From Thermoplasmatota archaeon (GTDB lineage Archaea; Thermoplasmatota; Penumbrarchaeia; Penumbrarchaeales; Penumbrarchaeaceae), in assembly GCA_049472215.1 (NCBI GenBank), contig JBLIRH010000001.1, positions 43,308 to 107,307 of the forward strand: a DNA stretch of 64,000 nucleotides, written 5' to 3'. This document shows, in pieces, positions 11,196 to 61,210 of this stretch (within the stretch, counting starts at the first letter, position 1; each line of letters starts with the position of its first letter). Made by a program: the position numbers and the translations under genes. The notes beneath the pieces are model-generated. The model was not told the origin of the DNA. It made no database searches and saw only the letters and a program-made list of their open reading frames with translations.

Positions 11196-11221
11196 CCATC
11201 CTCCCTCCTCAACAGTTATCT

Positions 11222-14440: not shown

Positions 14441-14519
14441 TTCTTATCACCTGCCTTTGATGATGTCCGCGCTATTGTTCGCCCCACAGTATTGTTAGGC
14501 GCCCAATATTGTAGACCTT

Positions 14520-14560
14520 ACACTAGTGTGTAGTGCACAATACTATATATATTTTTTTGA
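14520..14560. promoter_or_regulatory. Bidirectional promoter core: palindromes ACACTAGTGT and GTGCAC next to TATATATAT, flanked by AGACCTT direct repeats
   Basis: Read directly in the 250-bp divergent intergenic region between the ABC operon (-) and the REC-PPDK_N gene (+). Confidence 0.35.
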
Positions 14561-14689
14561 AGACCTTTGAAAAAACAATTTTTCACGGCTCCCGGGATAT
14601 ATTCATATGTGTTCTAGAACGAGGATCTCCGTGCCGGGCCCCTCCCGGTCATGGGAAGGATTTAAAGTCATCGAACAGTACTTATCCGC

Positions 14690-17665: not shown

Positions 17666-17670
17666 GGATA

Positions 17671-18144: not shown

Positions 18145-18186
18145 TCCCCGAAATCCTATTTATATGTCCAAGTCAGGTGAAGGCCC

Positions 18187-24359: not shown

Positions 24360-27300
24360 ATGATTACGGGGAGAGAAATAATGAAGGGAGCCCTTTCCTT
24401 TATCCTGGTGATCGTCCTGTTATTTTCATCTACATTCCTTTTTCTTATACTGCAGGAAGCCGATCCGAATGGAATGATGGTGAGCTCCTCCTCATACCTT
24501 TCCGGGCTCTCGGGTCCTATCCACATCTATGATGATGATAGTTTCATCTCCCAAGCAGAATCGAACAACTGGACCGGAAATGGAAGGAATGAGCCGTTCA
24601 TCATCAGGGATCTCGAAATTGACTGCCATGGCGGTGAATATGGAATAAAAATTGACGGAACATCATTCAGTTTCATCATCCAAAACTGCAGGATCTCCAA
24701 TGCCTCCGGCCTATTGGGTGCCGGAATCTACGTTGGGCGATGGATCGGGGGCGCTTTGATCGATAGCTGCAACATCACGTCATGTCCAAACGGGATTTAT
24801 CTAGAAGCAACAACGCTCGACCTGAGGAACAACAGTATCAGCAGGAATGCTGTTGGAATTCATGTATATCTTGGTTACGACATAGAGATAGTCGGAAATC
24901 ACTGCTTTGAAAATGAAAAGGGAATATACATCTCAGAAAGTTCAGGTATCATCAGAGTGGATTCCAATTACCTGATGAACAATACCGAATGCGGCCTGGA
25001 AACCGCGGATTTTGGAGAACCGGTCATTGTCACAAACAACACGGTCGAGAACAATGACTTCGGTTTGCTGATCTCGGATTCCCCTTATTCGAGGATAGTT
25101 GGGAACCGTCTTTCGAACCAGGACGATCACCACATAAGGATAGAAAGCGATAATGTCGTCGTTGAGGGTAATATCGCAAACGGGCACGGCGATGGTCTGT
25201 ACCTCACGGGAAATTCACATGATGTTACCGTGATCAATAATAGCTTGATCGGTAACTGGGAGTATGGCATTTATATCGACAAAGGATGTTATGATAATAA
25301 TTTTTACAGCAATGAAATGGTGAACTGTTCCTTCTATCTTGAGCCGGATATCGATGTAATAAGGGGGCAAAAAATTTCCGAGAACAATACGGTGAATCAT
25401 AGAAGGGTCGTTCACCTCTTTGATAGAACATACAGGTCCGCGGTTCCGCCCTATGAATATGGTCTGAACCTGTCAAAGGACATAGGACAGATCATCCTTG
25501 GTAAGGTGGACGGGGTCTGCATTTTCGACTGCAATCTCAGCAATGGAACGGTAGGTCTCGAGCTCGTCGAGTGCAACAACATCTTCACCTGGAACAATAC
25601 GATGTCCGATAACACCTATTACGGCCTCTTTACCAGGAACAACGGCCTCATATATGTCAACCGATCCCGGTTCGAACGGAATTTGGTTGGAATGGAGGTT
25701 GAATCCATAGAATTCAAAACAAATAACAGCATCATATGCAACAATACGGAAGGCATCCATCTGATAGGTGAGAAGATCGGTCATGAGGTTGAGAAGAACA
25801 GTATTTTCGGGAACTCGATCGGGATCAAGATAGATCCTTGGCCGGTTACCTCCTCCATCCCATATGTGATCCGCGACAACAATATATCCCACAATATTGA
25901 AACAGGCCTTTATATAGGATCGTACGTGTGTGAGGTCAAGAATAACTTGTTGATGGACAATCCTACTGGACTCTTTTTTGAATATACCGAATACGCAATA
26001 AATGAGGACAACACCTTCATCGGGAACGGTGTGGGGGTTCGATCGAAAAATTCCGGATTGATCTCCGGGGGAAATTCCTTCATTGGTTGTGGTGTCGGTA
26101 TCGAGGTCGGCCCATCCGGTTCATTTGAGAGCCTCCTTTCATACAATTACTTTCGTAATAGCACTAACAACGGTATCCTATTGAATGAAGCCAGTGATGT
26201 ATTGGTCGGGGGCAACATATTCGACGGATCCGATTCTTACGGGATCGAGGTCTATCGCAGCGAAAATATCACCCTCAGAACGAATTCTTTCAATCGATGT
26301 TCACTCCACATCACGGGGACCGATCCATCCCATTTCACAGATATCAAGGTCGAAGAGGAGAACACGGTAAATTCTAAACCTTTGGTCATGATCGTGTCCC
26401 AGTCGGGTTCTGGTTTGCCGGTGAACGATCCGGGCCAGGTCTTGATAATAGGTTCCAGCAATATCAGTGTCACCGGGAAGAGCTTCGATAACATTACCTG
26501 TTCTATCCTCTCTGCATTTTGTCAGGATATCAGGGTCCAGGATTGCTGGTTCGAGGACCAGTATTGTCCGATCGAGGTCTTTGAATGTTCAGATATCGTG
26601 GTCGATTCGAGCCATTTCATGAACATCGAGTTTGGAATACGATGTATCTCATCGGATAAATTGACCATAAAGGACTCCGATCTCAGCGGGATCGATACTC
26701 AGGGTCTCGATCTGAGGGATACCTCATTGATCGAAATATTTGATTGTTCTTTTGAGAACGGTAGCGGAACCGGAATGGCACTTCAGGATTGCCACTATGT
26801 GGAGATCACAAAGAACGTCATCACGAAGATGGAACAGGGCATTCGATTGATGGGGGGAACCACCGGAACCGATATTTCGAATAATCTGATAGGTTGGAAC
26901 ACCGGATACGGTTTGGTGGTTGTGAAAGGTTCCAGATACAATACGATCCATTGGAATGCATTCTTGTTCAATAATCAGACATCCTTTGATCCTTTGAGAT
27001 CCAAAGGCGACCCCCAGATCTTGAACGACGATGCAACAACGGAGATAGAATGGAACCATTGGAACACTTATGGGAGGTCCTCAAAGGACAACAATGAGGA
27101 TGGGGTGTTCGACGATCCGTACTGGGTCGGCCCTCGTGTTTACAATATGGACAACAATCCACTCGTTCATCCGCCCGAGGCCATTCTACCGATACCAAAG
27201 GATATCCATGGTTATCTGACCAAGACCCTCGAAGCCAGTAATATCACTCTATACTTTAATTTGAACAAAGGGATCAAGAGAGCCCAGGTTTTGAACATCA

Positions 27301-28667
27301 CGGTAAACATTTCTGTTGGTGACCAAAGGCGGTCATACCAGATTCCCTTCAAGGAGGATGGCATCCATCACATTTCCTTTAAGGCACCTTCAGACGGGGG
27401 AGATGTTGAGTTCGAGCTAAGAACACAGAGTCTAGCCGGTTCCAGCAGGATCGTGAAATACATTTTCCCCGAGGATCGGACGCCCCCCCATATCAAGATC
27501 CTTTCACCGAGAAACGGTTCCGTCCTTAACTCGTCGTTGGTAAGGATCCGGTGGGAGGCATTTTCCAAGGTCGGAGGGGGCCTATTTGAACTGTACCTAT
27601 CCCAAAACGGTGAAGAATCTTTGGACCTGGATCCTATGAGCATGGACCAAAATCACTCCATTGTCGCAAACGAAGGAGCGAATACAATAAAGATCAGCGC
27701 AATGGACCATTTTGGCAATACGGCATCCGATACGATCGAGTTCATATTGGATACCCTTCCACCATCGTTTTCCATTGAAGGCGGCGGACCCACGATGAAC
27801 CCTGTTAAGATACAGTGGGAGTTCCACAATATCGAGAACGAGACGCTCAGGATGTGGTGGCGTCAAATAGGCTTTGAGTGGACCGAGATCGATCCGTTCA
27901 GCTTGCTTCTGGAACTTGACCTGCCCGATGGAGGCCAGATAATTAAACTGATGACAAGGGACCTCGCGGGTAATGTTTTCGCAACAAGAGTTGACCTTGT
28001 TGTCGATGCCACTCCACCCCAGGTATTGGCATGGGGGCCCTCGGTGACGGAATGGGAGCCCAATGATAAGATCTGGATAAAGTTCTCTGAGAAAATGGAC
28101 GTAAATTCGATCGATATCGTCATCCCGGGAATGGAATTCTCGTTCGAAGCTGTCGCTGACGATGAAGTACGTATCTCTCCCCTCATGGTCCTCGAGCGTG
28201 GGATGGAGTTCAACATCACCGTAAATGGAATGGACCTCGCGGGAAACACCATGCTGCCCTTTACCTTCATATTCTCCGCGGGAGAGGGTCCGGTCGACCA
28301 ACTACTTGGAACCTTGATCATCCTCATTACGAACAGGGAGGGGGATCCATTATATGGAGCCAAGGTCACGGTCTTTCCGTTGAACCGGGTTTTTGAACAG
28401 CAATATGGAGACACAATAGAGGTCGACCTACAACCCGGTGAATACGAGCTTCAGGCGGAAGCCGAGGGTTACCGGGCCAGTGTGATCACCGTGACGATCG
28501 TCGCTGGAACAACCGTTTCCGAAGTGGTCGTCCTTGAGAAGGAGGAGGAAAGCGGCCAGAGCTTCGTTCCTGTTCTCATTTTGATCATGACATTCGCAGT
28601 GGTCCTGTTGGTCTTCCTTCTATTGATAATATACCTTCGAAGTGAAAAAGAGTATCAAGAGGAATGA
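24360..28667 (+). CDS. Giant (1435 aa) surface glycoprotein with right-handed parallel beta-helix (PbH1) repeats, CarboxypepD_reg-like domain and C-terminal TM anchor
   Basis: Signal peptide. Dozens of beta-helix rungs of the form N.I.[GN]N...GI.[IL]. Many N-x-S/T sequons. C-terminal PVLILIMTFAVVLLVFLLLIIYL helix with a short charged tail. Confidence 0.7.
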   Translation: MITGREIMKGALSFILVIVLLFSSTFLFLILQEADPNGMMVSSSSYLSGLSGPIHIYDDDSFISQAESNNWTGNGRNEPFIIRDLEIDCHGGEYGIKIDGTSFSFIIQNCRISNASGLLGAGIYVGRWIGGALIDSCNITSCPNGIYLEATTLDLRNNSISRNAVGIHVYLGYDIEIVGNHCFENEKGIYISESSGIIRVDSNYLMNNTECGLETADFGEPVIVTNNTVENNDFGLLISDSPYSRIVGNRLSNQDDHHIRIESDNVVVEGNIANGHGDGLYLTGNSHDVTVINNSLIGNWEYGIYIDKGCYDNNFYSNEMVNCSFYLEPDIDVIRGQKISENNTVNHRRVVHLFDRTYRSAVPPYEYGLNLSKDIGQIILGKVDGVCIFDCNLSNGTVGLELVECNNIFTWNNTMSDNTYYGLFTRNNGLIYVNRSRFERNLVGMEVESIEFKTNNSIICNNTEGIHLIGEKIGHEVEKNSIFGNSIGIKIDPWPVTSSIPYVIRDNNISHNIETGLYIGSYVCEVKNNLLMDNPTGLFFEYTEYAINEDNTFIGNGVGVRSKNSGLISGGNSFIGCGVGIEVGPSGSFESLLSYNYFRNSTNNGILLNEASDVLVGGNIFDGSDSYGIEVYRSENITLRTNSFNRCSLHITGTDPSHFTDIKVEEENTVNSKPLVMIVSQSGSGLPVNDPGQVLIIGSSNISVTGKSFDNITCSILSAFCQDIRVQDCWFEDQYCPIEVFECSDIVVDSSHFMNIEFGIRCISSDKLTIKDSDLSGIDTQGLDLRDTSLIEIFDCSFENGSGTGMALQDCHYVEITKNVITKMEQGIRLMGGTTGTDISNNLIGWNTGYGLVVVKGSRYNTIHWNAFLFNNQTSFDPLRSKGDPQILNDDATTEIEWNHWNTYGRSSKDNNEDGVFDDPYWVGPRVYNMDNNPLVHPPEAILPIPKDIHGYLTKTLEASNITLYFNLNKGIKRAQVLNITVNISVGDQRRSYQIPFKEDGIHHISFKAPSDGGDVEFELRTQSLAGSSRIVKYIFPEDRTPPHIKILSPRNGSVLNSSLVRIRWEAFSKVGGGLFELYLSQNGEESLDLDPMSMDQNHSIVANEGANTIKISAMDHFGNTASDTIEFILDTLPPSFSIEGGGPTMNPVKIQWEFHNIENETLRMWWRQIGFEWTEIDPFSLLLELDLPDGGQIIKLMTRDLAGNVFATRVDLVVDATPPQVLAWGPSVTEWEPNDKIWIKFSEKMDVNSIDIVIPGMEFSFEAVADDEVRISPLMVLERGMEFNITVNGMDLAGNTMLPFTFIFSAGEGPVDQLLGTLIILITNREGDPLYGAKVTVFPLNRVFEQQYGDTIEVDLQPGEYELQAEAEGYRASVITVTIVAGTTVSEVVVLEKEEESGQSFVPVLILIMTFAVVLLVFLLLIIYLRSEKEYQEE

Positions 28668-28733: not shown

Positions 28734-29996
28734 ATGGTCCAGTCTTTCTACGCTTCTGTGTTGGAGCAGATCGACTCCACGGTCGAGCGTCTCTGCATCG
28801 ATCCCGGCATCGCCAAGATAATAAAGACCCCCGAAAGGGAGCTTACGGTCCAGATCCCCATTGTCAACGATGAGGGTGAGATCGATGTCTTTACCGGTTA
28901 CAGGGTCCAGCATAACTCTGCAAGGGGCCCCTGCAAGGGGGGCGTCAGGTACCACCCTCAGACAGACCTCGATGAGGTCAAGGCGCTGGCAACCCTCATG
29001 TCATTGAAATGCGCCGTGGCGAACGTCCCCTTCGGCGGGGCAAAGGGCGGTGTCACCTGCGATCCCAGTGAGCTGAGCAGATGCGAGATCCAGAAGATCA
29101 CAAAGAGATATGCAACGATGATCAATCCGTTCATAGGGCCTAAGAAGGATATTCCCGCTCCGGATATGAACACCAACGCTGAGACCATGGGGTGGTTCAT
29201 GGATGCCGTATCCATGTACGCCGGTCATACGATGCTCGATATCGTGACCGGGAAACCGCTCGAGCTGGGAGGATCTCTTGGAAGAAGGGAAGCGACCGGT
29301 AGAGGTGTCATGCTCAATACCATGGAGCTTCTGAACAGGCTCGGTCGGGACCCGAAGAAGACAACGGTTGCGGTACAGGGTTTCGGGAACGTAGGCTCGG
29401 TAGCGGCTCAGCTGATCACCGAGCAGGGGTCCAAGGTTATTGCAGTGAGCGATATGTCCGGTTTGCTCTATGATCCCGATGGAGTGGACGTGGACGCGCT
29501 TGTCAAGTTCGTCTATTCTGGGCCAAGGCCGCGGCTCTTCAAGGATTTCGAAGGTCCGGGCCATACATTCGAAAAAGAGGGAACTAAGATACTTTACGAG
29601 GATGTTGACGTTCTCGTCCCTGCAGCCCTTGAGAACCAGATAACGATCGATAATGCCGACAAGGTGAAAGCACGCATCATAGTGGAAGGTGCGAACGGCC
29701 CTATCACAAAGAGGGCAGATTCGGTAATGATCGAAATGGGAACACATGTGATACCGGACATTCTCGCTAACAGCGGTGGTGTCATAGCCTCCTATTTCGA
29801 ATGGGTCCAGGGGATACAGTCATTCTTCTGGGACGAGGATGAGGTGAACAGGCATCTCAAGAGGATCATGCTGAAGTCCTTCAAGGAGGTCTGGGATATG
29901 GCTCAAAAGGAAAAGATAACCCTCAGGGAAGCAGCATTCACTCTTGGGATCTCAAAGATCTCCAATGCCTTGGAACTGAGGGGTATATTCCCATAA
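28734..29996 (+). CDS. gdh: Glutamate dehydrogenase (420-aa class)
   Basis: KGGVRYHP, PFGGAKGGV and GFGNVGS are GDH family motifs. Confidence 0.9.
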   Translation: MVQSFYASVLEQIDSTVERLCIDPGIAKIIKTPERELTVQIPIVNDEGEIDVFTGYRVQHNSARGPCKGGVRYHPQTDLDEVKALATLMSLKCAVANVPFGGAKGGVTCDPSELSRCEIQKITKRYATMINPFIGPKKDIPAPDMNTNAETMGWFMDAVSMYAGHTMLDIVTGKPLELGGSLGRREATGRGVMLNTMELLNRLGRDPKKTTVAVQGFGNVGSVAAQLITEQGSKVIAVSDMSGLLYDPDGVDVDALVKFVYSGPRPRLFKDFEGPGHTFEKEGTKILYEDVDVLVPAALENQITIDNADKVKARIIVEGANGPITKRADSVMIEMGTHVIPDILANSGGVIASYFEWVQGIQSFFWDEDEVNRHLKRIMLKSFKEVWDMAQKEKITLREAAFTLGISKISNALELRGIFP

Positions 29997-30047: not shown

Positions 30048-31814
30048 ATGTTCAGGATACGAAGGATCGATAATTGGACAACACCTGGAAGTAAACAGGC
30101 AGTGACCAAGGTACAAGAGATGATCCGGGACCATTTTGAGAATGAAAGTGAGTACATCATACTGAGCATACCATCATCCCTTCATGACCCGATCATTCGA
30201 AAATATCGATCGATAATCTTCATCGCAGAGGGTTCCCAGGATAATGTCCAAGGAGCTGCTATCCTGCTTCACTTCCCCGACCATAGATTCTGTTTTCTGG
30301 ATTACATATTCTCTTCCAAGGGCAAGCTCGGCCGCGGGGTCGGCAGCGCCCTATATGAAAGGGCCAGGTACGAAGCCCGTTCCCTGAATTGTATCGGGAT
30401 ATTCCTCGAATGCCTGCAGGAGACCGTCCAAGCTGAACCGGACCCATCGATAAGAAAGGAGAATGTTGCACGCTTAAAATTCTATGAAAGATATGGTGCA
30501 AGACCGATCATGAACACGAAATACGAGACCCCACTCATAGCGGAGGACCTTAATCCCCCTTATCTTGTTTACGACGATCTCAGCCAGGACAGGAGGTTGA
30601 GAAAGAAGGAGGCAAGAGGTATCGTCAGGGCAATACTCGAGAGGAAGTACAAGGGCCTATGTCCTCCGGATTATGTCGAATTGGTTGTCGGATCGTTCAT
30701 GGATGATCCGGTCCGTTTGCGGGAGCCGAAGTATACCCGGGAAGACAAGTTCATATCTGTTGGAAGTTCGATCCCCCAAGACAGGCTCATCCCGCTTATC
30801 ATAAACGACAAACATGAGATCCATCATGTTCATGAAAGGGGATATGTTGAATCACCCGTCAGGATCCGTTCCATTATCAAAGGATTGGAAGACAGCGGTC
30901 TTTTTGAACGGGTCGCTGTGGAAAGATACAGAGAATCCGAGGTCCTTGCGGTCCATGATCGAAGGTATGTCGATTATTTTAAAAAGGTCTGTAGCAACCT
31001 ACCACCTGGAAAATCCGTCTATCCCTACGTATTCCCGATCAGGAACAGGACAAAACCTCCCAGGGAGCTCTTGATGAGGGCAGGCTACTTCTGCATCGAT
31101 ACCTTCACTCCTTTGAACAAGAATGCTTACCTGGCAGCTAGGAGAGCCGTGGATTGCGCGCTCACCGGGGCGGATAGGATTCTGAAGGGAGAAATGATAT
31201 CATATGCACTAGTAAGACCTCCTGGCCATCACGCGGGCAAGGATTATTTTGGCGGTTTCTGTTACTTCAACTCCAATGCCATTGCAGCCAACAGGTTGTC
31301 GCGTGAAGGAAAGGTCGCCATTCTGGACATCGACTACCACCACGGGAACGGGCAGCAGGACATATTTTATGAAAGAAGTGATGTGCTTACCATAAGCATA
31401 CATGGCCATCCCTCGTTTGCCTATCCATATTTTACCGGTTTCAAGGATGAGAGAGGGATCGGAGATGGTCTTGGTCATAACTGGAACATCCCTCTCCCCG
31501 AGAGAGCAAGCGGCGACGATCATTTTCGCGCCCTTGAGGTCGCACTTGACCACATCAGGAAGTTCGACCCGGATTTTCTCGTTGTGGCTTTCGGGATGGA
31601 TACAGCCAAGGGAGATCCGACCGGAACTTGGGATCTTCTTGTGAAAGATTTCGAGAGGAACGGCCGCTTAATAGGCTCCATGAAAGTACCAATCCTAGTT
31701 GTTCAGGAGGGGGGGTACAGGAACAGAATACTCGGTGGGAATGCAAAACATTTCTTCAGGGGTATTTTCAAGGGGACCTATACTTCAGGTAATGCTTCCA
31801 TGGTCGTTCAGTAG
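30048..31814 (+). CDS. Fusion of GNAT-type acetyltransferase (N-terminal) and HDAC/AcuC-type deacetylase (C-terminal)
   Basis: N-terminal LHFPDHRFCFLDYIFSSKGKLGRGVGSALYERARYEA is GNAT motif A. C-terminal VRPPGHHAG...GFCYFNSNAIAA...ILDIDYHHGNGQQDIF...ISIHGHP are class I/II HDAC (arginase-fold deacetylase) motifs. Confidence 0.7.
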   Translation: MFRIRRIDNWTTPGSKQAVTKVQEMIRDHFENESEYIILSIPSSLHDPIIRKYRSIIFIAEGSQDNVQGAAILLHFPDHRFCFLDYIFSSKGKLGRGVGSALYERARYEARSLNCIGIFLECLQETVQAEPDPSIRKENVARLKFYERYGARPIMNTKYETPLIAEDLNPPYLVYDDLSQDRRLRKKEARGIVRAILERKYKGLCPPDYVELVVGSFMDDPVRLREPKYTREDKFISVGSSIPQDRLIPLIINDKHEIHHVHERGYVESPVRIRSIIKGLEDSGLFERVAVERYRESEVLAVHDRRYVDYFKKVCSNLPPGKSVYPYVFPIRNRTKPPRELLMRAGYFCIDTFTPLNKNAYLAARRAVDCALTGADRILKGEMISYALVRPPGHHAGKDYFGGFCYFNSNAIAANRLSREGKVAILDIDYHHGNGQQDIFYERSDVLTISIHGHPSFAYPYFTGFKDERGIGDGLGHNWNIPLPERASGDDHFRALEVALDHIRKFDPDFLVVAFGMDTAKGDPTGTWDLLVKDFERNGRLIGSMKVPILVVQEGGYRNRILGGNAKHFFRGIFKGTYTSGNASMVVQ

Positions 31815-31904: not shown

Positions 31905-33332
<1,428 letters not shown>

Positions 33333-36675: not shown

Positions 36676-37482
36676 ATGAGATCGAAGATACTTGTGGCCA
36701 TTGGCGTTTTGCTTGCATTGATCGGCCTTTTCTTCTTTGCGGTCAGTCTGGAAGAGATCATCAATCCTACGCCCACGGAGAACGAGGAAGGAGAGGAGGT
36801 CGAGGGAGACAGCGGCCTCGGAATTTGCATGATGGTGATCTGCGTCCCGATCTTCTGGGTCCCGGCTGGTTTCCTATTCTATTTCGGACTCGAGGACAGG
36901 GCTGGGACAGATCTCGATGACGTTGCATCACTTCTTCGCTCTTACGAGGAGATCTCCATCGAGGATGCAGCCGAGATACTGAATATCTCCGAGAGAAAAA
37001 CGGAGAAGAAGGTCCACCAATGCATCGACAGGGATATGTTAGGGGGCCGGGTCATCAATGCTGTTTATTACTCTCCGGCCAAACTGGAATACTTGAATAG
37101 AAGGACCGACTGGATAGAGAGGTTGAAGGATGTTGCAGATATCCTAATTGCCTACCGCCGGGTAGAGATAAAGGTCGTGGCAAAGAAGATCGGTCAGGAT
37201 ATCCCGACCACCGAGAGATTGATCTTAGAATGTATCGAGGAAGGGATGGTGAAGGGTTATCTCTCCTCGAAGCAGCATGTTTTTTACACCCAGGAGTACC
37301 TGGAGCAGCTGGATGATGCAAGGGTAGGCTGGACCTGTGATAAATGCGGGGCGCATCATGACGAGGTGCTTCTTCCCGGGGACTATGGGAAGTGCACCTA
37401 TTGCGGATCCATCTCGAAAGCAAAGGGGATCTCGATAGCTTCATCCGAGGTGGAGAAAGCATTGGAAGCTATCGAACTCTGA
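36676..37482 (+). CDS. Membrane-anchored protein with two N-terminal TM helices, two winged-helix-like modules and a C-terminal CxxC...CxxC zinc ribbon
   Basis: TMs ILVAIGVLLALIGLFFFAV and ICMMVICVPIFWVPAGFLFYF. Two ~60-aa helical/wing units (AAEILNISERKTEKKVHQCI...; VVAKKIGQDIPTTERLILECIEEGMVKGYL). C-terminal CDKCGAHH...CTYCGS. Confidence 0.45.
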   Translation: MRSKILVAIGVLLALIGLFFFAVSLEEIINPTPTENEEGEEVEGDSGLGICMMVICVPIFWVPAGFLFYFGLEDRAGTDLDDVASLLRSYEEISIEDAAEILNISERKTEKKVHQCIDRDMLGGRVINAVYYSPAKLEYLNRRTDWIERLKDVADILIAYRRVEIKVVAKKIGQDIPTTERLILECIEEGMVKGYLSSKQHVFYTQEYLEQLDDARVGWTCDKCGAHHDEVLLPGDYGKCTYCGSISKAKGISIASSEVEKALEAIEL

Positions 37483-37528
37483 TACTGGTTTCAAAAGATT
37501 TTTATCGACCACTTCTGCTTGGTGACCA

Positions 37529-37984
37529 ATGAGGATTGGGGACGTTGGTGCCGTCTCCCCGGTAGGGGACCTGCTGGCTTTCTCTCTTGCGGTCGTCATC
37601 GTGGCCTCCCTGGTGCATGGTGTCGGAAATTTGGGAAAAGATACCGATGAACAGGGAAGTGAGGATTGGGCGGTCCTGATGATGTCAGTTCGCGAATGGG
37701 TTGGCTTCGATCCGGACAATGACGGTATATTGGAATTACGTCCTCCTTCAGACATTGATACTGAGGTTGAGATCGAATTTCCTTTAATGGGTGTTGTTAC
37801 CGTCATTTTCAAAAATGGTGGTTCAGGGTCCGGTTATCGGTTCATCGATGGTTCGATCGACACGAAAATTTCAGAACCGGCCCACCTTTGCCTGGTCCAT
37901 GGCTGTTCAGTTATCGTTGAGACAACTGAAGGTTTTTTCCCAGCCTTAATGGAGGTATCTGTTGCGGGAGGTGATCATCAATGA
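37529..37984 (+). CDS. Small N-terminally anchored protein with archaeal type-IV-pilin-like (class III signal) N-terminus
   Basis: N-terminus MRIGDVGAVSPVGDLLAFSLAVVIVASLV resembles the [KR]G[AQ]VSPVIG...hydrophobic H-domain of archaeal pilins. ATGA overlap with the next gene. Confidence 0.4.
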   Translation: MRIGDVGAVSPVGDLLAFSLAVVIVASLVHGVGNLGKDTDEQGSEDWAVLMMSVREWVGFDPDNDGILELRPPSDIDTEVEIEFPLMGVVTVIFKNGGSGSGYRFIDGSIDTKISEPAHLCLVHGCSVIVETTEGFFPALMEVSVAGGDHQ

Positions 37985-38478
37985 TCCGGAAAATCCGCAT
38001 GGAGGGCATGGAAACGGTAACATCCCTGCTGCTTCTCATCATTTCCGCAATATTGGTCTTCGGAGTGTTATCCTTCCTTGATCTCGGAGAGAATGATGAT
38101 AACGATCGGGATCTTATCAGGCTCAGAAGCTTCCAGGCCAAATGCCTCGGAGAGGTACTGGTCAGCACCTATTCGATCTCCCTTCAGTATGTCGAAGATG
38201 ATAGTTCCATTTCCGATGCGGTTGTAGTGTGGGATGGTGAGGGTATAGTGATCCACGATCACGGAAGATCACCGATCCCCTTGCCCTGGACCCAAGCACT
38301 GTCCACAACTCCCGAAGGATTGACCTCGGCTCTCATTTTCGGAGATGGGAATGCGCTCATTGATGGTCCTTCAGGAGAGTTCGTCACTTGGTCTCACTCG
38401 ATGGAGGGTGGGGATATCGTCAGGATCTACCTTTCAGTCCATGTTGGATCCCTTCATTTCGGAGGTGTGTTGGGGTGA
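37981..38478 (+). CDS. Small N-terminally anchored (pilin/FlaF-FlaG-like size class) protein
   Basis: Basic N-region MIRKIRMEG followed by the hydrophobic helix METVTSLLLLIISAILVFGVL. GGAGGTGA ribosome-binding site upstream. Its stop overlaps the GTG start of the giant gene (GTGA). Confidence 0.35.
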   Translation: MIRKIRMEGMETVTSLLLLIISAILVFGVLSFLDLGENDDNDRDLIRLRSFQAKCLGEVLVSTYSISLQYVEDDSSISDAVVVWDGEGIVIHDHGRSPIPLPWTQALSTTPEGLTSALIFGDGNALIDGPSGEFVTWSHSMEGGDIVRIYLSVHVGSLHFGGVLG

Positions 38479-41400
38479 GGTCTCCTGATGTTAAGATCGA
38501 TAGGTTCGGGAGGGAAGCCTTTGCTTATTTGGCCATCTCAATTCTTGTTCTTACCACCTTCTATGTTTCATACGAAATATCACTGGAAAGGGGGTGGGAG
38601 AAGGGTCTCAGGGACAGGTCCCTCCTTCTCGATCTGAAGGGGGAGCTCAATGGTGTGAAGTGGGGGATCGGCCAGTATCTGATAGCACTGAACGACGAGT
38701 TCGTTATCAGAGCCGGGACGGAGGTTCTTCGGGACCCGATGGATAAGAGATTGGATGGTCGAGTGGAAAGTATGCTGATCGAACGCCTTAACCTCGAGCT
38801 GGCCGGGATCGCGAATTCTTTCCTTCCCCCGGATTCATCCTTTAACATCGAGATTCTGAACTGGACCGTCGATTCGATCCCCGTCACAGGGGATCTGGAG
38901 ATACCAGTCCCCGGTACCCGGATGGACCGGAACCTGTCCGGGCTGACCGAAACATGCATGGGAAGTGAGGTTTTCGGTGTCAATACCACATTCCATATCG
39001 AAATGGTCATGACGGACAGCGAAAGCTCATTGATCGTCATGGATGATCTCGAAATCAGTGTGAATAGAGTGTCCCTGTCGGAGTTCGTAACAGGAAGGAT
39101 CCAGAGGTTCCAGGATGCCGTCAACGGTATGGAGCTCGCCTCACTTTTGGAATACATGGTGGGATTGCTGGTCCAGACGAAATGCATGATGGGATTCGGC
39201 CGCGAACCGGGGACAGGAGAGATCGTCCCCATCTCAATTGTGACCGAGGCGGAGCTTCTTTCGGTCCTCGACCTGGCAATGGCCCTCCTTGCAAGGTCCC
39301 ATCTGATGGTTGATGACAGAGGTTTCATCGAGTCCATTGGAGAGGACCTATCCATGGCACCTGGTGGAAGTAAAAGGACGATCCTTCCGGAGTATATCGA
39401 GAGTTCCCAAACGGTCCTGGATCCGGGTGCATTGGTTCTCGGGGGGGAGGGCATATTCCATCAAGACAATCCACCGGACCTGCAGATGGTCCTGAGACCT
39501 TTTTTCCTGGCGATCGTCGATACGGTCGTGAACAAGCTCGTATCCTACCTGGGGGTCGATGATATGTTGATGGGAAGCGTTGGACGCCTCAAGACCATCT
39601 TCGACCTCGGAGCGGAAGCGGTTGATTCACTGTCCGAATCCATCCTCGGGATGGACCTGATCGATACAAGCAGGTCATCGGCAAAGGACATCTTCAGATC
39701 GATGCTCGAGAGGAGCTGCTATCTCGACCCGGAAGAGTACACCATAATGATCAGGAAGAATGAGGAAGTGATCTGGAACGGAAGCTCCATATCATCATAC
39801 CCGCTGGTTAGATTGCCTCAGATGGAGAGATCCTTCGAACTCGGTCTCTCGGATGGAGGGCCCGAGAACCAATTCTACCGTTCCCCTAATGGGACAGTAC
39901 ATTCCAAGGCGGAATATTTCGACCCGACGGAGGAATTCCTTGGCGTTCTTTGCACGATATACAGGATCAAGGCGAATTTTATTTTCGATGAGATCGAGCC
40001 CCCCTTCATTCCGAGGAACCTGCTTGAGGACGAGGAGTTCATCAATGCGCTAGCATACTTCCTGGGAACGGACGAGAGCGATACGGGATCAGGGTCCGAA
40101 AGCGAGTTCAGGGAGAAAGGCAGATACGCCGTCCGGAAGGTGACCGAGTCTTTCTTCAACGGGATCACTGGACCCTTCAACGAGATCTGGAAGAGCAGTT
40201 GGAAAGGTTGGACCGATGAGGACATTCCATCCTTTTCAGATGGGCTGCCCCCGCTTGGTTCCATGATGGACATCGGTTCATGGCCCATCAAGGAGCTGGC
40301 GGATTCCTTTGCCACTGCCCTGATCGATGAGTTCAGCGTCGTGGGCCTGTTCGAATCCCTGTGCGATGTGGAAGGGGAATATACCGAGCTGATAGCTGAT
40401 TGGATCTTCACGAACTATGACATTTGGACACACCGTGGTGACCAGATCGGGTACATACAAATGATCAGGAAGGACCTGATATTCGACCATACCGATGTTG
40501 AGATATTGGAGGTGACCCCCGTCGAGGAGAACGTTCTCGAAAACGATATATACCTCGAAACGGGAAAGAACGAGGTCTCCGTGATCAGCGAGCGTCCCGA
40601 GATCTCGAAATGGCTCGGGTTGGGACTGGCGGAGAAGCTTGAAATTGACGTTGAACTGGAATTCCACTGGTCATCCTTGATATCGGCATCATATCTTGAG
40701 GTCAGGGACAGGGAGTTCGGCACCGGGTCCGATGGAAGGGGGGAAGGATGGATAAGGAATGAGCTGAAGGGACAGGGAACCAGGGGTTTCGATCTTCTGT
40801 TCAGCTCGTATAACGGTGATCCGCTCAGTATATCCAATATGGTTGAGGGCCTCGTGAGCGAAGGTTTTGATTCGATAGGATGTTTCAACGATGCAAGCAC
40901 GCGTATCTCGGGTGGACGTTTCCTTCTACCTGCAACCGATCTCGGAGGCAGGATCGAGGTCCACGATTTGAACCCGGGGACCGGGTCGATCGATAACCTG
41001 ACCGCTGTTCTCGCGATCCAGAGGAATCCCTCCTCCCGGGCCACGATCGAACCTACGGATGGGACCTACAACACAGATATTTCCAACGCCTCTGCTCCCT
41101 ACAGGACGATCTATTCTGTTTATTTCTGGGGAGAATACACGGTTCGATTCTCTGTCTCATCGGGGGATAATGGAACTTCTTCCAATATCTCCAGGATATT
41201 GCCGGTATACACCCGGCTCTCATGCCAGGTGGCTTCTTATTGGCCGATGTTCGGGGCACAGTATGAAAAGGTTGGCAGGCTCATCGACCATCTGAAGGAC
41301 AAGGTGGTCGAGGCAAGGGATACGCTCAAAGGCGAACTTAACAGGATCGTAGAGGATGTCCTCGGAGACTCGATGTCCTCTCTCAGAGAGGTGCCCCCGA

Positions 41401-43109
41401 TAATCATCGATATCGTCAAGGGTAACGATCTGGATATTGCGGAGATAGCCAGGGTTGCATCCAACATTACCATGGACCTTTCATCCACCCTTAGGGAGAC
41501 GGTCAAAGGCATTGTGACAAAGATCGCAGGACTCGGTGTGAAAGGGATCCTGAACCTTACATGTGCCATACTGGGTATCGAAAAGATCGATCTTGAGCTT
41601 GATATCGGAACATTGAAGGTCGCTTTGCATACGGAAAGAAAAGCCCTTACGGGTGGGCCGGGAAGCCTTCTCAACATTACCTTCGACCTTAGCTCCATCG
41701 GGATGCATTGCTGCATGTCCTTCAACAGACTTGAGGACGGGAACTATGACTTCCACGGAACTGCGACGTTCGATGTCGGCCCGCTGTGGTTAAGGCTTGA
41801 AATGGACCCGTTCATGTTGAGAGCTCCGCATATGATATCGATCGAGGTAAGATATGATGCAGGAAATGGAAAGGTCCTCAGGGCTTCGCTTGAATGCCCT
41901 GCATTGGAGGAGTACCGTTCATGCCAGGTATCGCTTGGCGACACACTGGGTGTCGAACCTTTCATTCCGATACCGCCGCTCGGCATACAGGCCGTGATCG
42001 ATGCTGGATTCATGATGAGGTACCGGATGCCAGAGGAACTGGGGCCCCAATTGAATGAGATAAGGATCTCTGGAAGGAATATCACGGAGGTTGAGATTTT
42101 CAATCCGAGGGGATACCCGCTGTATGGTTCAACCCTTGAAATTGAAGGTCGAAAGGGGAGTTTGATCATATCCTGGAAATTGGACCCGGAGAACAGCAGG
42201 TTCATAATGGCAGGTATGAAAGTGTCGAACTTATGGAGATGTGATGGTCCCGTTCCCAGCAATGGCATGGTGAGGGTGGTCCTTCGATCCCCATCGGGTC
42301 TTATCCTGGACGATCTTGATGCAAACCTTTCCAAAAGCGGCTGGTTCTCGAGGGATGCGGATGGCTACGGTGTTTGGAGGTACGGCGAGGGGACGCCAGG
42401 GTCCCGGAACGGGGGTTCTTTGCCAACCGATATCAAGTCTCTATTGATCTCGATCGCTCTATCGGCGGTAAAGGAGGCATGGAAGTTATCCTACGAGGTA
42501 CACGGTCTCTCATTCGATATCATCGTTCCCTTTCTGGAAAAGGCCATCGACCTGTTCATGGAACGATTTCTATCGGTGGTCCGTGAGCTGGTGGTCGATG
42601 TGCGGATGTTCCTGTCCCTCGAGATCGAGGATGCTTCGGGAACAGCGGGTGGAGGATTGGAGCTCTCTTTCCTGGCAGATGGAGAGGCTGTCGCAGAGTT
42701 CCTCGGGTGGCTATACGAAAACATCAAGGTTTTCATATCCAATCTCGCGGACCCCCGGAGTGCAGGGGATTACAGGGCTTTCCCCATGGAGATCCTGGCA
42801 AGATGCTACATTGGCCTGGATCTGTTCATGGAGGTCGAGATGCCGGTTCCCATCGCGAAGATGGCCCCGAAGGGGGTCGATCTTCCCGATTCCTTCACCC
42901 TTGCTATCATGGGAAGGGTGAACCTTGCGCTCCCCTTGAAATTACTTGGAGTGGATGTGGGGGGAATTGCCATAGTTCTTGGTATCTACATCAAGGATGC
43001 ACCGGATGCTATAGTGTCCCTTTTCTACGATGTCGGGAACATCGGTCTGACCCAGGACTTCTATTTGTTGAGGGGGACCGTCTGGGAGGAATCCATCGAG
43101 GTGATATGA
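38475..43109 (+). CDS. Orphan giant protein (about 1545 aa), N-terminally membrane-anchored, no recognisable domains or internal repeats
   Basis: Start taken as GTG 38475 overlapping the upstream stop; the track's 38388 start overlaps the preceding gene by 91 nt. Single N-terminal TM FAYLAISILVLTTFYVSY. Mixed alpha/beta-looking, acidic. Confidence 0.55.
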   Translation: MRSPDVKIDRFGREAFAYLAISILVLTTFYVSYEISLERGWEKGLRDRSLLLDLKGELNGVKWGIGQYLIALNDEFVIRAGTEVLRDPMDKRLDGRVESMLIERLNLELAGIANSFLPPDSSFNIEILNWTVDSIPVTGDLEIPVPGTRMDRNLSGLTETCMGSEVFGVNTTFHIEMVMTDSESSLIVMDDLEISVNRVSLSEFVTGRIQRFQDAVNGMELASLLEYMVGLLVQTKCMMGFGREPGTGEIVPISIVTEAELLSVLDLAMALLARSHLMVDDRGFIESIGEDLSMAPGGSKRTILPEYIESSQTVLDPGALVLGGEGIFHQDNPPDLQMVLRPFFLAIVDTVVNKLVSYLGVDDMLMGSVGRLKTIFDLGAEAVDSLSESILGMDLIDTSRSSAKDIFRSMLERSCYLDPEEYTIMIRKNEEVIWNGSSISSYPLVRLPQMERSFELGLSDGGPENQFYRSPNGTVHSKAEYFDPTEEFLGVLCTIYRIKANFIFDEIEPPFIPRNLLEDEEFINALAYFLGTDESDTGSGSESEFREKGRYAVRKVTESFFNGITGPFNEIWKSSWKGWTDEDIPSFSDGLPPLGSMMDIGSWPIKELADSFATALIDEFSVVGLFESLCDVEGEYTELIADWIFTNYDIWTHRGDQIGYIQMIRKDLIFDHTDVEILEVTPVEENVLENDIYLETGKNEVSVISERPEISKWLGLGLAEKLEIDVELEFHWSSLISASYLEVRDREFGTGSDGRGEGWIRNELKGQGTRGFDLLFSSYNGDPLSISNMVEGLVSEGFDSIGCFNDASTRISGGRFLLPATDLGGRIEVHDLNPGTGSIDNLTAVLAIQRNPSSRATIEPTDGTYNTDISNASAPYRTIYSVYFWGEYTVRFSVSSGDNGTSSNISRILPVYTRLSCQVASYWPMFGAQYEKVGRLIDHLKDKVVEARDTLKGELNRIVEDVLGDSMSSLREVPPIIIDIVKGNDLDIAEIARVASNITMDLSSTLRETVKGIVTKIAGLGVKGILNLTCAILGIEKIDLELDIGTLKVALHTERKALTGGPGSLLNITFDLSSIGMHCCMSFNRLEDGNYDFHGTATFDVGPLWLRLEMDPFMLRAPHMISIEVRYDAGNGKVLRASLECPALEEYRSCQVSLGDTLGVEPFIPIPPLGIQAVIDAGFMMRYRMPEELGPQLNEIRISGRNITEVEIFNPRGYPLYGSTLEIEGRKGSLIISWKLDPENSRFIMAGMKVSNLWRCDGPVPSNGMVRVVLRSPSGLILDDLDANLSKSGWFSRDADGYGVWRYGEGTPGSRNGGSLPTDIKSLLISIALSAVKEAWKLSYEVHGLSFDIIVPFLEKAIDLFMERFLSVVRELVVDVRMFLSLEIEDASGTAGGGLELSFLADGEAVAEFLGWLYENIKVFISNLADPRSAGDYRAFPMEILARCYIGLDLFMEVEMPVPIAKMAPKGVDLPDSFTLAIMGRVNLALPLKLLGVDVGGIAIVLGIYIKDAPDAIVSLFYDVGNIGLTQDFYLLRGTVWEESIEVI

Positions 43110-43150: not shown

Positions 43151-43372
43151 ATGTCTCAGGTATTCAAGGCAAAGGTCAGGAAGATCGGCAATTCATATGG
43201 TATTCTCATACCGGCAGAGATAATCCAGGAACTCCATGTTGGATCAGGGGATGAATTGATGATCTCAGTCGCCACCATAGATCTTGAAGAAAGGAATAGA
43301 TTACTTGTCAAGATGGCGGGACTTTACAAAGGCACAGGACCATTCGAAAGGGAGAAGGAGGATCGCTACTGA
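43151..43372 (+). CDS. vapB: AbrB/MazE/SpoVT-type antitoxin (VapB-like)
   Basis: MSQVFKAKVRKIGNSYGILIPAEIIQELHVGSGDELMI has the swapped-hairpin fold signature. It is the 3' end of track ORF 42707-43372. TGATG overlap with the PIN gene. Confidence 0.75.
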   Translation: MSQVFKAKVRKIGNSYGILIPAEIIQELHVGSGDELMISVATIDLEERNRLLVKMAGLYKGTGPFEREKEDRY

Positions 43373-43767
43373 TGTTCATTGACACATCCATTCTCATCGA
43401 TATTATTTCACATAAAAGAGATTCATCGACCTTTCAAAGAATTCTTGACATAGTGAAGGACCAGCCAATGTACATTTCATTGATCCAATTAGGTGAATAC
43501 TCAGATTGGTGCTACAAGAATGGCAAGGACCCAAATGAACATCTTCGGAAGATCAAGGACATTGCAAATGTTGTAACCATTACTGAAGAGATATGCTTGG
43601 AAGGATCTCGAATAAAGGACCAACAAAGAAAAATCGGATCAAAGAAATTCTCCCTTGTGGACGGTATCATCACTGCGACTGCAAGGTCGATAAATTCTCC
43701 GATCTTAACAAAGGATAATGATTTTAAAACTCTCGAGGATGCTATTGTATTCGATAATTTCAAGTAA
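43372..43767 (+). CDS. vapC: PIN-domain ribonuclease toxin (VapC)
   Basis: MFIDTSILID start, acidic residues at the conserved PIN positions, ...ILTKDNDFK C-terminus. Confidence 0.8.
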   Translation: MFIDTSILIDIISHKRDSSTFQRILDIVKDQPMYISLIQLGEYSDWCYKNGKDPNEHLRKIKDIANVVTITEEICLEGSRIKDQQRKIGSKKFSLVDGIITATARSINSPILTKDNDFKTLEDAIVFDNFK

Positions 43768-50467: not shown

Positions 50468-51964
50468 TCAATTCCTTTTCTTGAAATAGGTGACAAGGAA
50501 AATTACCGCAATGAGGAGAGGGAGCAGCGTTAGCATAAGTCCGAACGAGGACCATTGGAGGACTTCCCATGAGGACGCATCATCCAGGAAAATGTACTCG
50601 ATGGCCATTATCACGAAATTGCCAAGCGCATCTGCCAGGCCAATGCACGCGAAGATCAGGAACAGGACGTTCATCAATCTGCTCATCTCCTCCGACACCT
50701 CCCTCTGCCTGGTGTCGATGAACGTCCTCAGAACCTCGATGGTCGAGGAAAGAATGTCCCTTGAATGGGAAAGCTCGTCAAGAAGGATCGAAAGGTCTCT
50801 CCTTGCACCTTCGATATCCTTTTGAGTGATCCCTCCCAGAGTATGTGAGAGTCCTTCAAGCGATACTGTCTCCGTGTGGAGCGAGATCGAGATCGAGACC
50901 TCGGCCACCCTCTGGTGCATCTCCTGAAGCTTGGAGGTCGTCCTCATTATCTGGTGTTCGACCTCCGATACGAGGGAGAACCTAACAGATGCTCTCGTCA
51001 GGAGTTCCTTTTCGGTCTCAAAGCTTTCCCGGTCGAGGAAATCCTTCTCTTTTTTCTTCTTTTTGTCTCCCTTCGTTCTATCCTTTGGGACATAGAGCTG
51101 CATATGATTGTTGATATTGTTCTGGAGCTGGAAGATCTGGTCTTTGAGATCCCTCCCTTTCACGAATAGTCCCTTGAGGTCCCCTCTCTTCATCTCGGAG
51201 AAATGGGACTGCATCAAAAATAGCTCCAGAAGTTTCGCCTTTACCGCCATCAGGTTGATCAGGTAGGTTTGTCTGATCTGGTACAGTTTCTTCTCACTGG
51301 TCGTCGCTTCCCCATAGGGCGAGCTTGGAGATACCTGTATGGGACTCTCACCGTAGGTGCTCAGAGCCCTGATATCCCCAAGGTCCATTTCCAGGACCAT
51401 ATCGTGTGGGAAGGTCTCCCTAGACCTCCCCTGAGGATTTCCCAGGAGGTAGATGGAGGATGATACCTTACCATGCTGGATAGAATTGACGACCACCTCC
51501 CCCGTTCTATTCATGATCCTGTTGAGGTAGGATATGTTGGACTGTAGGAGGTCAAGATGTTCATCACCTCGGTCCTTGTAAAGGAACGAGATGTCAGAGT
51601 AGGTTTTCAACCATACCTTCTCGGTGCCTGCGCAGGTGAATATGTTGTAGTTGTAGATAGATGAATCCTTCATGATATGCGGCTGTAATTTTTCTATGAC
51701 TGCCTTCTTGTGGGCTCCTATCTCTTCGAATTTCACTTTTACGAGGTCCGGGGAGACATCACTCGTCCCTTTCACCTCGGGCAGGATATCCAGCATAAGT
51801 TCGATTACCGTCCAATCTTCCTTCAGGGACACGTCGCACTTTATACCTTTCAACTTGATGAATTCGGATTTCAAAGTTTCCAGGACCTTCTTCTCATTGT
51901 CCTTTTCGGTCCTGAAAAGGATAAGGGAGTAGACCTTTGGGTCGTATAATGTGAAGGTCCTCAA
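50468..51964 (-). CDS. Hypothetical coiled-coil membrane protein with CorA-like C-terminal topology but GNF in place of the GMN motif
   Basis: Long charged/coiled-coil middle (KKKKKEKD). C-terminus ...LFLIFACIGLADALGNFVIMAIEY...FGLMLTLLPLLIAVIFLVTYFKKRN gives two TMs flanking a loop motif, ending like CorA (FKKR). Confidence 0.3.
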   Translation of the reverse strand: MRTFTLYDPKVYSLILFRTEKDNEKKVLETLKSEFIKLKGIKCDVSLKEDWTVIELMLDILPEVKGTSDVSPDLVKVKFEEIGAHKKAVIEKLQPHIMKDSSIYNYNIFTCAGTEKVWLKTYSDISFLYKDRGDEHLDLLQSNISYLNRIMNRTGEVVVNSIQHGKVSSSIYLLGNPQGRSRETFPHDMVLEMDLGDIRALSTYGESPIQVSPSSPYGEATTSEKKLYQIRQTYLINLMAVKAKLLELFLMQSHFSEMKRGDLKGLFVKGRDLKDQIFQLQNNINNHMQLYVPKDRTKGDKKKKKEKDFLDRESFETEKELLTRASVRFSLVSEVEHQIMRTTSKLQEMHQRVAEVSISISLHTETVSLEGLSHTLGGITQKDIEGARRDLSILLDELSHSRDILSSTIEVLRTFIDTRQREVSEEMSRLMNVLFLIFACIGLADALGNFVIMAIEYIFLDDASSWEVLQWSSFGLMLTLLPLLIAVIFLVTYFKKRN

Positions 51965-60514: not shown

Positions 60515-61210
60515 TCAGATGATCTTTCCAGTGCTTGTCACCGTGATCCTTGTCCCGTCGATGTTGTAAGTCAGCTCGATGCTCTTTTGCTCGAGTGAGA
60601 ACTTGTTCACGACTATGGTATGGTAGATCCCGTCGATTATCCGGATCGACCTGAGCTCTATGATGCCGTCGAACTTGTCTATGACCGACTGCATCTCCCT
60701 GTCGTCAAGGATATCTGCCATTAGGAATACGACCACTATGCCTTTTTTCATGGCGATGTCCCTGATCATTATTATGAAATCACCGGTGTCGCTGATACCG
60801 AACTTCTCGATGAAGAAGGTCAGGGGATTGATCAGAACCCTGTTTACCTTGTTCTCATCGAGCTCCCTCATATGCTCGATGATCCTTGCCGGAACGGCGT
60901 TGATGAAGAACTTCGAATATTCCGGACATGCATCTATGAAATCCAAGCCGGAAAGGAGCTTTGGATCTACGTTCTCATGCATGAGCTCCAGTATCTCATC
61001 GCTGGAGGCCTCGACATCATAGAAAGCGACGTCTTCGCCCTTCTCCAATCCGTCAAGGACGAACCTGTAACCGAACAGGTCCTTTCTCGAGCTCGGGTCG
61101 CCCACATAGAGGATGATGGTACCTTTCCTGAAGCCACCCTTATGGAGTGATTCATCAAGTGCCGTGATACCGCTCGAGACAGTGCCTTTGTGCCCCTTGA
61201 TGGATGCCAT
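60515..61210 (-). CDS. KaiC/RecA-superfamily ATPase-like protein with degenerate Walker A
   Basis: KaiC-like N-terminus ...SSGITALDESLHKGGFRKGTIILYVGDPSSRKD. The P-loop position reads GDPSSRKD rather than GxxGxGKT. Confidence 0.5.
   Translation of the reverse strand: MASIKGHKGTVSSGITALDESLHKGGFRKGTIILYVGDPSSRKDLFGYRFVLDGLEKGEDVAFYDVEASSDEILELMHENVDPKLLSGLDFIDACPEYSKFFINAVPARIIEHMRELDENKVNRVLINPLTFFIEKFGISDTGDFIIMIRDIAMKKGIVVVFLMADILDDREMQSVIDKFDGIIELRSIRIIDGIYHTIVVNKFSLEQKSIELTYNIDGTRITVTSTGKII

Follow-up and report, generated by a model that had tools for sequence, protein, structure and literature searches.

What is the outer coat of an archaeon made of when its lineage has no S-layer genes, and how might such a coat be held on the membrane? 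The phylum Thermoplasmatota includes wall-less acidophiles, gut methanogens (Methanomassiliicoccales) and many uncultured marine and sediment lineages. The Thermoplasmatales are reported to have no S-layer genes and to be covered instead by an unordered layer of protein, roughly 20 nm in depth, in which no component could be named (Gaines et al. 2025, cryo-EM, PMC12448462). The question is raised by a group of genes on a 64,000-nucleotide stretch of DNA from a Thermoplasmatota archaeon (contig JBLIRH010000001.1; the whole stretch is referred to here as the window). Four consecutive genes on the + strand, g1 to g4, end in one that encodes a giant protein, and the original prediction, made from the sequence alone, took them for a translationally coupled operon and a candidate for an undescribed surface or secretion-associated system. 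The analysis described here points to a smaller unit, g2-g3-g4, conserved in nine loci, whose largest product belongs to a phylum-wide family. The reading that is favoured, with a probability of about 0.45, is that g2, g3 and g4 form a stoichiometric, N-terminally anchored surface complex, and that g4 contributes to a protein coat.

The g2-g3-g4 genes and the place of g1

The first gene, g1 (36676-37482, +), encodes an accessory membrane protein of 268 residues, which lies outside the conserved core. It is followed after a 46-nt gap by g2 (37529-37984, +; 151 residues), which shares an ATGA overlap (37981-37984) with g3 (37981-38478, +; 165 residues), and g3 in turn shares a GTGA overlap (38475-38478) with the giant gene g4 (38475-43109, +). 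These junctions are as they were first described. The products of g2 and g3 are predicted single-pass proteins, and that of g4 has an isoelectric point (pI) of 4.5 and a single N-terminal anchor. The earlier length of g4, 1,545 residues, needs correction, as translation from the GTG gives 1,544. An in-frame TTG at 38388 would extend the protein to 1,573 residues; GTG is nevertheless the likely start, since the homologues all begin at the equivalent position.

The arrangement could be followed in nine loci, collectively termed clade A (the window, L001, L002, L003, L004, L005, L010, L011 and L013); a scan of one genome per GTDB species with clade-A patterns yielded eight loci, all from close relatives. 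In all nine loci with readable upstream sequence, genes of about 150 and about 155-170 codons precede the giant gene, and neither their order nor the 4-nt overlaps change, so that synteny and the small overlapping open reading frames (ORFs) are both conserved across clade A. The sequence GGAGG lies 6-12 nt before the starts of g3 and g4 in nine of nine loci; in the window the Shine-Dalgarno sites are GGAGGTGA for g3 (37967-37974, +) and GGAGGTG for g4 (38461-38467, +). Upstream of g2, an element of the form caaaaNNTTTTTATC is conserved in position, 24-32 nt before the ATG, throughout the nine loci and regardless of the presence of g1. In the window it reads caaaagaTTTTTATC (37492-37506, +) and resembles a transcription factor B recognition element (BRE) with a TATA box. 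Archaeal TATA boxes sit about 27 nt before the transcription start, and from this spacing the element may be taken as the putative promoter of g2. The distance from the element to the ATG suggests, in addition, that the g2-g3-g4 transcript is probably leaderless.

The gene g1 behaves differently. It has a TATA-like box of its own, ttttaaaata, about 40 nt upstream, and among the eight loci in which the region before g2 can be read for this purpose, it adjoins g2 in only three, namely the window, L004 and L005. It is not next to g2 in L001, L002, L003, L010 and L013, nor in L094 and L095, two distant loci described below. In L001 and L003 the gene immediately before g2 encodes a glutamate dehydrogenase, and other neighbours are found in L002, L010 and L013. 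Because adjacency is so limited, and because the conserved BRE/TATA element lies between g1 and g2 while g1 has a separate TATA box, the group is best described as one gene plus three: a predicted g2-g3-g4 transcription unit, and g1 as a frequent but dispensable neighbour with a promoter of its own. Co-translation and a shared function, which had been proposed for all four genes, are thus supported for g2, g3 and g4 by the overlaps and by the GGAGG sites of nine loci, but not for g1 as a fourth member of the operon.

It is accordingly very unlikely that g1 is an obligatory structural or secretion component acting alongside g2-g4, as a four-gene operon would have it. Such an operon would account for the short distance and common strand, for the adjacency of g1 and g2 in L004 and L005 despite differing upstream neighbours (an Lrp-type regulator and a methyltransferase), and for the conservation of g1, whose orthologues are 82% and 53% identical and thus more conserved than g2-g4. 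It would not account for the seven loci named above in which g1 is not next to g2, for the promoter-like element between the two genes, or for the nature of the g1 protein, the soluble domains of which would be cytoplasmic. The domains themselves are as first claimed, namely two N-terminal hydrophobic segments, two winged-helix-type units and a CxxC...CxxC ribbon, with invariant zinc-ribbon cysteines at C221, C224, C240 and C243. Two parts of the protein match Pfam PCI (PF01399), with E = 2.2e-12 and a score of 47.5 bits where 22 is the cut-off, and its orthologues in L004 and L005 are weak PCI matches; a search of PDB sequences with the g1 profile gave no match. Most likely g1 is a membrane-tethered regulator or adaptor with its winged-helix and zinc-ribbon domains in the cytoplasm. 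A link between PCI domains and the endosomal sorting complex required for transport (ESCRT; PMC11188069) was considered and dropped, as no ESCRT gene lies nearby.

The flanks of the group had been read as an Lrp regulator upstream and a VapBC pair downstream. Upstream, an AsnC-type helix-turn-helix domain was matched (E = 1.2e-5), though just under the cut-off of Pfam. Downstream, a toxin-antitoxin pair, composed of an AbrB/MazE-like antitoxin and a PIN toxin, occupies 43151-43767, directly 3' of the giant gene; its PIN domain is matched at E = 2.7e-12, while the antitoxin (about 43151-43372) was recognised solely by inspection of the translated sequence. A MazE and PIN pair is found in the same position 3' of the giant gene in L098 (7347-8019), a locus from an unrelated branch of the family, and the two cases may reflect either a recurrent insertion site or coincidence.

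The giant protein and its family

The protein encoded by g4 had been regarded as an orphan, a label that no longer applies. A HMMER profile of its residues 345-1544, searched against 1.84 billion cluster representatives, matched 170 representatives at E <= 0.001, of which 134 also pass E <= 1e-10. Their length is mostly 1,300-1,700 residues, and the match reaches the C-terminus. Every member with a name belongs to Thermoplasmatota, being assigned to Thermoplasmata, Candidatus Methanomethylophilaceae or Methanomassiliicoccales. A word-indexed protein search returned only seven relatives with 39-59% identity, all from Thermoplasmatota metagenome-assembled genomes; it also returned a protein 100% identical to g4 (ACMUHM_00365), and the source of the window is itself a metagenome-assembled genome of this phylum. 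Querying this search with an 11-sequence alignment gave fewer matches than the single sequence. Family members are already present in the databases, as 'hypothetical' proteins, as 'lamin tail domain-containing' proteins (several of them) or as entries for domains of unknown function (DUFs). No description of the three-gene or four-gene module, or of the phyletic spread of the family, was found.

An alignment of 32 family members indicates homology along the full length, with the shared motifs LAQxRVLxGYG, SGWxLxGVxY, DPLM and LSNIPxPxxGxKAxxDAGxxLKY. A lamin tail domain (LTD) signature, VINExExNPxGxDxGxEWVELYNP, and a conserved C-terminal module are also common to the alignment. The family consists of acidic proteins of 1,300-2,000 residues that combine a conserved N-terminal anchor motif with an Ig-like lamin tail domain and, towards the C-terminus, a further conserved module. 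In g4 the anchor corresponds to hydrophobic residues at about 14-37 in a Kyte-Doolittle plot, in agreement with the single anchor first proposed, and the protein has 14 N-glycosylation sequons where about 7 are expected.

The aligned LTD region matches Pfam LTD (PF00932) in 27 of the 32 members, with a best E-value of 1e-15, and some homologues exceed the gathering cut-off of 34.3 bits (P0049, 51.0 bits; P0035, 38.2 bits; P0027, 37.3 bits). The window g4 gave no match to Pfam LTD at E <= 0.1 and so falls outside the family as Pfam delimits it. Its structure was predicted with AlphaFold2 in two halves, using 7-sequence alignments. In the C-terminal half the model is confident only for residues of about 1189-1294 (42039-42356, +), where the predicted local distance difference test score (pLDDT) is about 80; these residues form an Ig-like beta-sandwich whose top Foldseek match in the PDB is the lamin-B2 tail (2lll; probability 1.0, E = 0.03). 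Given the Pfam matches of the relatives and this fold, a lamin tail domain appears to be present in g4 by homology and predicted structure, though degenerate in sequence. The earlier statement that nothing recognisable was to be found in the protein is therefore superseded. The N-terminal half is modelled at a pLDDT of 75-90 over residues 50-330, where long helices are followed by three long strands; this half had no significant Foldseek match in the PDB.

Profile positions 788-874 (g4 residues of about 935-1035; 41277-41579), a hydrophobic helical stretch after SGWxLxGVxY, match FtbJ of a monocin (9j1k_J, E = 3e-6) and phage gp57 (6v8i, E = 7e-4). FtbJ belongs to the Listeria monocin, a tailocin (PMC11830787), and its appearance together with gp57 would make it a tape measure protein. 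Both matches carry high bias scores over a hydrophobic helical repeat and are therefore probably compositional, and a tape-measure similarity of the family was rejected. They are, along with the PIN toxin gene directly downstream, what would speak for the genes being left over from a virus or mobile element. A search of 2.9 million viral contigs yielded no relative, and neither an integrase nor a capsid gene lies nearby. The giant genes sit among housekeeping genes, and their linkage to RsgA, topoisomerase VI, PolD and a GTPase gene is maintained from genome to genome; a viral origin was rejected on these grounds, and this reading is scarcely credible.

A different role would be that of a membrane-anchored adhesin or substrate-capturing complex, in which the giant ectodomain would attach to a surface, a polymer or another cell, with the small proteins serving as its chaperones or anchors, and which would not be a general component of the envelope. 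Lamin-tail domains and Ig-like folds occur widely among proteins that bind targets outside the cell; PKD or Big_5 domains are present as well in some family members (P0209), and P0154 is named an Ig-like domain protein. In addition, g2 has a loop, WxGFDPDGDG (residues 57-66; 37697-37726), that is invariant in all orthologues, and its DxDxDG motif resembles calcium-binding loops of extracellular proteins; the window also encodes several other giant surface proteins. Adhesins, however, usually vary, duplicate and move, whereas the giant gene occurs once per fetched locus, keeps its size, is conserved over its full length across the phylum and lies in housekeeping surroundings, and no binding domain beyond the LTD was detected in it. 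A dedicated adhesin is for these reasons improbable; if the family were just that, some 170 protein clusters that now count as hypothetical would still gain a useful annotation.

Weak similarity to four uncharacterised archaeal Pfam families (DUF7286, DUF7285, DUF7266 and DUF7311), which form a set with DUF7287, is seen among relatives of the giant and among the small proteins that flank them; all of these matches fall below the curated cut-offs of Pfam, and g2, g3 and g4 of the window match none of the five. The first 30-65 positions of DUF7286 (PF23957) are matched by 15 of the 32 family members, with a best E-value of 5e-4; the matching relatives score 14-18 bits against a gathering cut-off of 27 bits and a model of 1,000 positions. 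P0210, which carries a precomputed faint DUF7286 match, fits the giant-family profile at E = 6e-73, and a distant relationship between the g4 family and DUF7286 is weakly indicated by this protein. Among the small proteins, the first of those encoded before the L095 giant resembles DUF7285 (E = 3.5e-4), and similarity to DUF7266 (E = 2.6e-5) and DUF7311 (E = 8.5e-6) is seen in other small proteins at the flanks. The consecutive Pfam numbers suggest that these families are encoded by neighbouring genes in their type organism. Literature searches for DUF7286 and the neighbouring DUF names returned nothing from the library that could be searched, so that these families give the proteins a name but no explanation; nothing came of a search combining lamin tail and Methanomassiliicoccales either, and a tblastn search of the PLSDB plasmids with P0210, aimed at haloarchaeal copies, gave no match.

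The small partners and the resemblance to pilins

Two of the more distant family members are preceded by small genes as in clade A. In L094, the locus of P0210, genes of 162 and 174 codons with a 4-nt overlap are followed by the giant gene, and in L095, the locus of P0030, genes of 150 and 186 codons precede it. The pattern of two small proteins with an N-terminal transmembrane segment plus a giant thus recurs in two distant branches. A second set of genes adjoins the giant gene of L094 on the opposite strand (14265-18881, -) and encodes a 1,196-residue Big_13 protein, a 168-residue protein with weak DUF7311 and DUF7266 matches, and a 166-residue protein that is the source of a DUF7266 match at E = 2.6e-5; all three have N-terminal helices.

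In clade A, g2 and g3 each have one N-terminal hydrophobic helix, as originally noted (Kyte-Doolittle windows 6-36 in g2 and 7-38 in g3). Their N-termini are, with that of g4, the most conserved parts of the three proteins: g2 begins with an invariant MRIGDVGAVSPxGDLLAF in all nine loci, and g3 has a conserved G-METxTSMFLL. All three proteins are acidic, with pI values of 4.2-4.5. Remote-profile searches of the small proteins, which had been recommended, assigned only g1, to Pfam PCI; g2, g3 and g4 had no Pfam or NCBIfam match, also when searched member by member at E <= 10. The possibility that g2 and g3 are paralogues was discarded, as they are not detectably related (hhalign E = 0.19).

A further candidate partner is encoded in the window 18 kb from g4. 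The gene g5 (61295-62122, +) specifies a single-pass protein of 275 residues, homologous to the products of convergent genes in L010 and L002 (tblastn E = 1e-21 and 2e-24, respectively). In L002, L010, L094, L095 and L096 a gene of this type (166-308 codons, one N-terminal helix) is convergent with the giant gene and abuts its 3' end. The proteins from L094, L095 and L096 are inter-related (BLASTP E = 1e-13 to 1e-16), the L010 protein matches that of L094 at a BLASTP E-value of 1.6e-4, and proteins of the g5 type weakly match DUF7266 (E = 2.6e-5). In the window, g5 is divergent from a stand-alone KaiC/RecA-like ATPase gene at 60515-61210 (-; Pfam KaiC, E = 2.3e-10). KaiC-family ATPases have been listed as possible regulators of archaeal pili (PMC4858521); no KaiC gene was found near the g5-type gene in L002 or L010.

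Are these proteins pilins? In each of the three core proteins the first 30-40 residues contain one hydrophobic helix with a short charged segment before it. The N-terminal logo of the giant family is D-x-[KR]-[GA]-[RQN]-[MV]-P-F-A-x-x-A-V-x-L-L, and of 82 members 81 carry G or A at its key position; in the clade of the window it reads DxxGREAFAYLA. Such a logo is similar to a class III (prepilin) site. When the FlaFind motif, [KRDE][GA][ALIFQMVED][ILMVTAS] as quoted in PMC4307647, was applied to g2 and g3, both failed in all nine orthologues, g2 because it carries V at position -2 (V-G-A-V within D-V-G-A-V-S-P) and g3 because it carries E at +2 (x-G-M-E-T). The g4 protein passes only as E-A-F-A, a non-standard site four residues after the conserved G of the family. 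A FlaFind 4-mer is found in 29 of 82 family members (35%) against 10% of control windows. No T2SSE, T2SSF or Peptidase_A24 gene was found within 8-10 kb in the Pfam-annotated loci or in the 64-kb window. The pilin-like character first ascribed to the small proteins is in consequence only weakly supported, by the N-terminal helix but not by the signal motif, and the resemblance serves as a lead on anchoring and packing rather than as a demonstration of membership.

The strongest form of the resemblance would be a true type IV filament (TFF) module. In that case g2, g3, g5 and g4 would be class III signal-peptide proteins, cleaved by a prepilin peptidase and assembled by a pilus ATPase and platform encoded elsewhere into a short pseudopilus or a tip complex with g4 as its giant tip subunit, by analogy with GspI-GspJ-GspK or with minor pilins and PilY1 of bacteria. 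The conservation of the N-termini fits such a module, and so does the G or A at the edge of the hydrophobic stretch, which follows a K or R in half of the members, with FlaFind matches enriched over the controls. Small beta-rich proteins with N-terminal helices cluster around one large protein, as in archaeal pilus loci (PMC4858521), genes for archaeal pilins often lie apart from those of the machinery (PMC4858521, PMC12448462), and large proteins with class III signals have been proposed to decorate TFF machines (bioRxiv 10.64898/2026.04.22.720090). The failure of g2 and g3 in FlaFind, the non-standard site of g4 and the absence of assembly genes from the searched intervals speak against it, as does the distribution of the giant, which is carried by Methanomethylophilaceae even though Methanomassiliicoccus-type genomes are reported to be without pilus secretion ATPases (Makarova et al. 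2016, PMC4858521). A TFF module is on balance somewhat unlikely. The likeness to GspI-GspJ-GspK of the type II secretion system and to PilV/W/X-PilY1 lies in co-encoded proteins with single N-terminal helices, one of them much larger, and in N-termini that are the most conserved parts. The differences are that g4 exceeds GspK four- to fivefold in size, that no ATPase, platform or peptidase gene is linked here, and that g2 and g3 miss the FlaFind motif.

The proposed surface complex and other features of the window

The favoured reading, an anchored surface complex of g2, g3 and g4, may be set out as follows. The conserved overlaps and Shine-Dalgarno sites would lead to roughly equimolar synthesis of the three proteins and hence to a complex. 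Each would be held in the membrane by its one N-terminal helix with the rest of the protein outside the cell, as a single N-terminal helix with basic residues before it would predict. The conserved helices may pack together within the membrane, where g5 would join the bundle despite being encoded 18 kb away, and the bundle would resemble the stalk of minor pilins or pseudopilins. The giant g4 ectodomain would in this way be held at the surface and would add to an unordered coat that takes the place of an S-layer. A surface location of g4 is plausible, and to that extent the surface system originally predicted is supported. Like S-layer proteins and what would be expected of the Thermoplasmatales exterior layer, g4 is large, acidic, probably glycosylated and membrane-anchored, and it belongs to a lineage without canonical S-layer genes. 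No well-characterised family claims it, and no sequence or fold similarity to an S-layer protein was found in Pfam, NCBIfam, the PDB or with Foldseek. The likeness to lamin tail proteins (PF00932), seen in 27 of 32 relatives and in the lamin-B2 tail as nearest fold, concerns about 100 of the 1,544 residues of g4 and says little on the remaining 1,400.

Several results weigh against this reading. Small ORFs with an N-terminal helix were sought beside stand-alone giant genes by a scan that detected five of five positive controls, and in 20 of 20 such loci (19 full-length metagenome loci from L014-L043, and L098) the giant had no adjacent small partners, so that a complex is not obligatory for the family. 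Hidden Markov models of g2 and g3 likewise found no copies within 10 kb of the giant in 32 full-length metagenome loci (L014-L045). In all 20 loci the giant gene stands alone among housekeeping genes. Those of the Methanomethylophilaceae type, which are included in L014-L043, have radical-SAM-like and geranylgeranyl reductase-like genes close by, and downstream of the giant a GTPase gene and the gene for the large subunit of PolD (all names read from translations). The small proteins of clade A and of L094 and L095 are clearly equivalent in position, while their homology is suggested only by the alignment of the g2 profile with the C-terminal 'HPxRLxVxxW' end of the L094/L095 small protein (hhalign E = 0.0086); g3 gave no significant profile match to the small proteins of these two loci. 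The topology is read solely from the basic residues before the helix. The g4 models are poor, with a mean pLDDT of 62 in the N-terminal half and 45 in the C-terminal half. Lastly, the presence of the family in the Thermoplasmatales proper, the organisms in which the coat was imaged, could not be shown.

A bolder version of the proposal is unlikely: that the giant family, joined in many lineages by two or three small partners, is the main building block of a coat replacing the S-layer in wall-less Thermoplasmatota, anchored by a pilin-like bundle and assembled without a dedicated type IV pilus ATPase. If true, a coat built on a pilin-like anchor would be a previously unrecognised mode of building the archaeal envelope. 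A family that is phylum-wide, anchored, acidic and giant is a concrete, testable candidate for an envelope component in organisms without an S-layer, and the small partners with their pilin-like motif bear on the reuse of the type IV filament design for anchoring large proteins.

Other predicted surface proteins are encoded in the window: a cadherin-like protein of 801 residues (1991-4396), a beta-helix/NosD protein of 1,435 residues with a CarboxypepD_reg tail (24360-28667), which has a homologue at the same relative position in L001, a Big_13/Big_7 protein of 1,310 residues (53019-56951) and a beta-helix protein of 473 residues (59090-60511). At 7430-13618 (-), genes for FtsX/MacB-type permeases of 1,014 and 798 residues, much longer than usual, flank an ABC ATPase gene (10455-11507). 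A protein of 498 residues without a family, encoded at 50468-51964 (-), has a hydrophobic C-terminus with only faint holin-like matches and no Pfam match; its gene lies beside topoisomerase VI genes, and the same arrangement is seen in L001, L003 and L004 (492-498 residues). Finally, two glutamate dehydrogenase paralogues (28734-29996 and 31998-33332) lie 2 kb apart with a GNAT/histone-deacetylase fusion gene (30048-31814) between them, and the glutamate dehydrogenase duplication is found in L004 as well.

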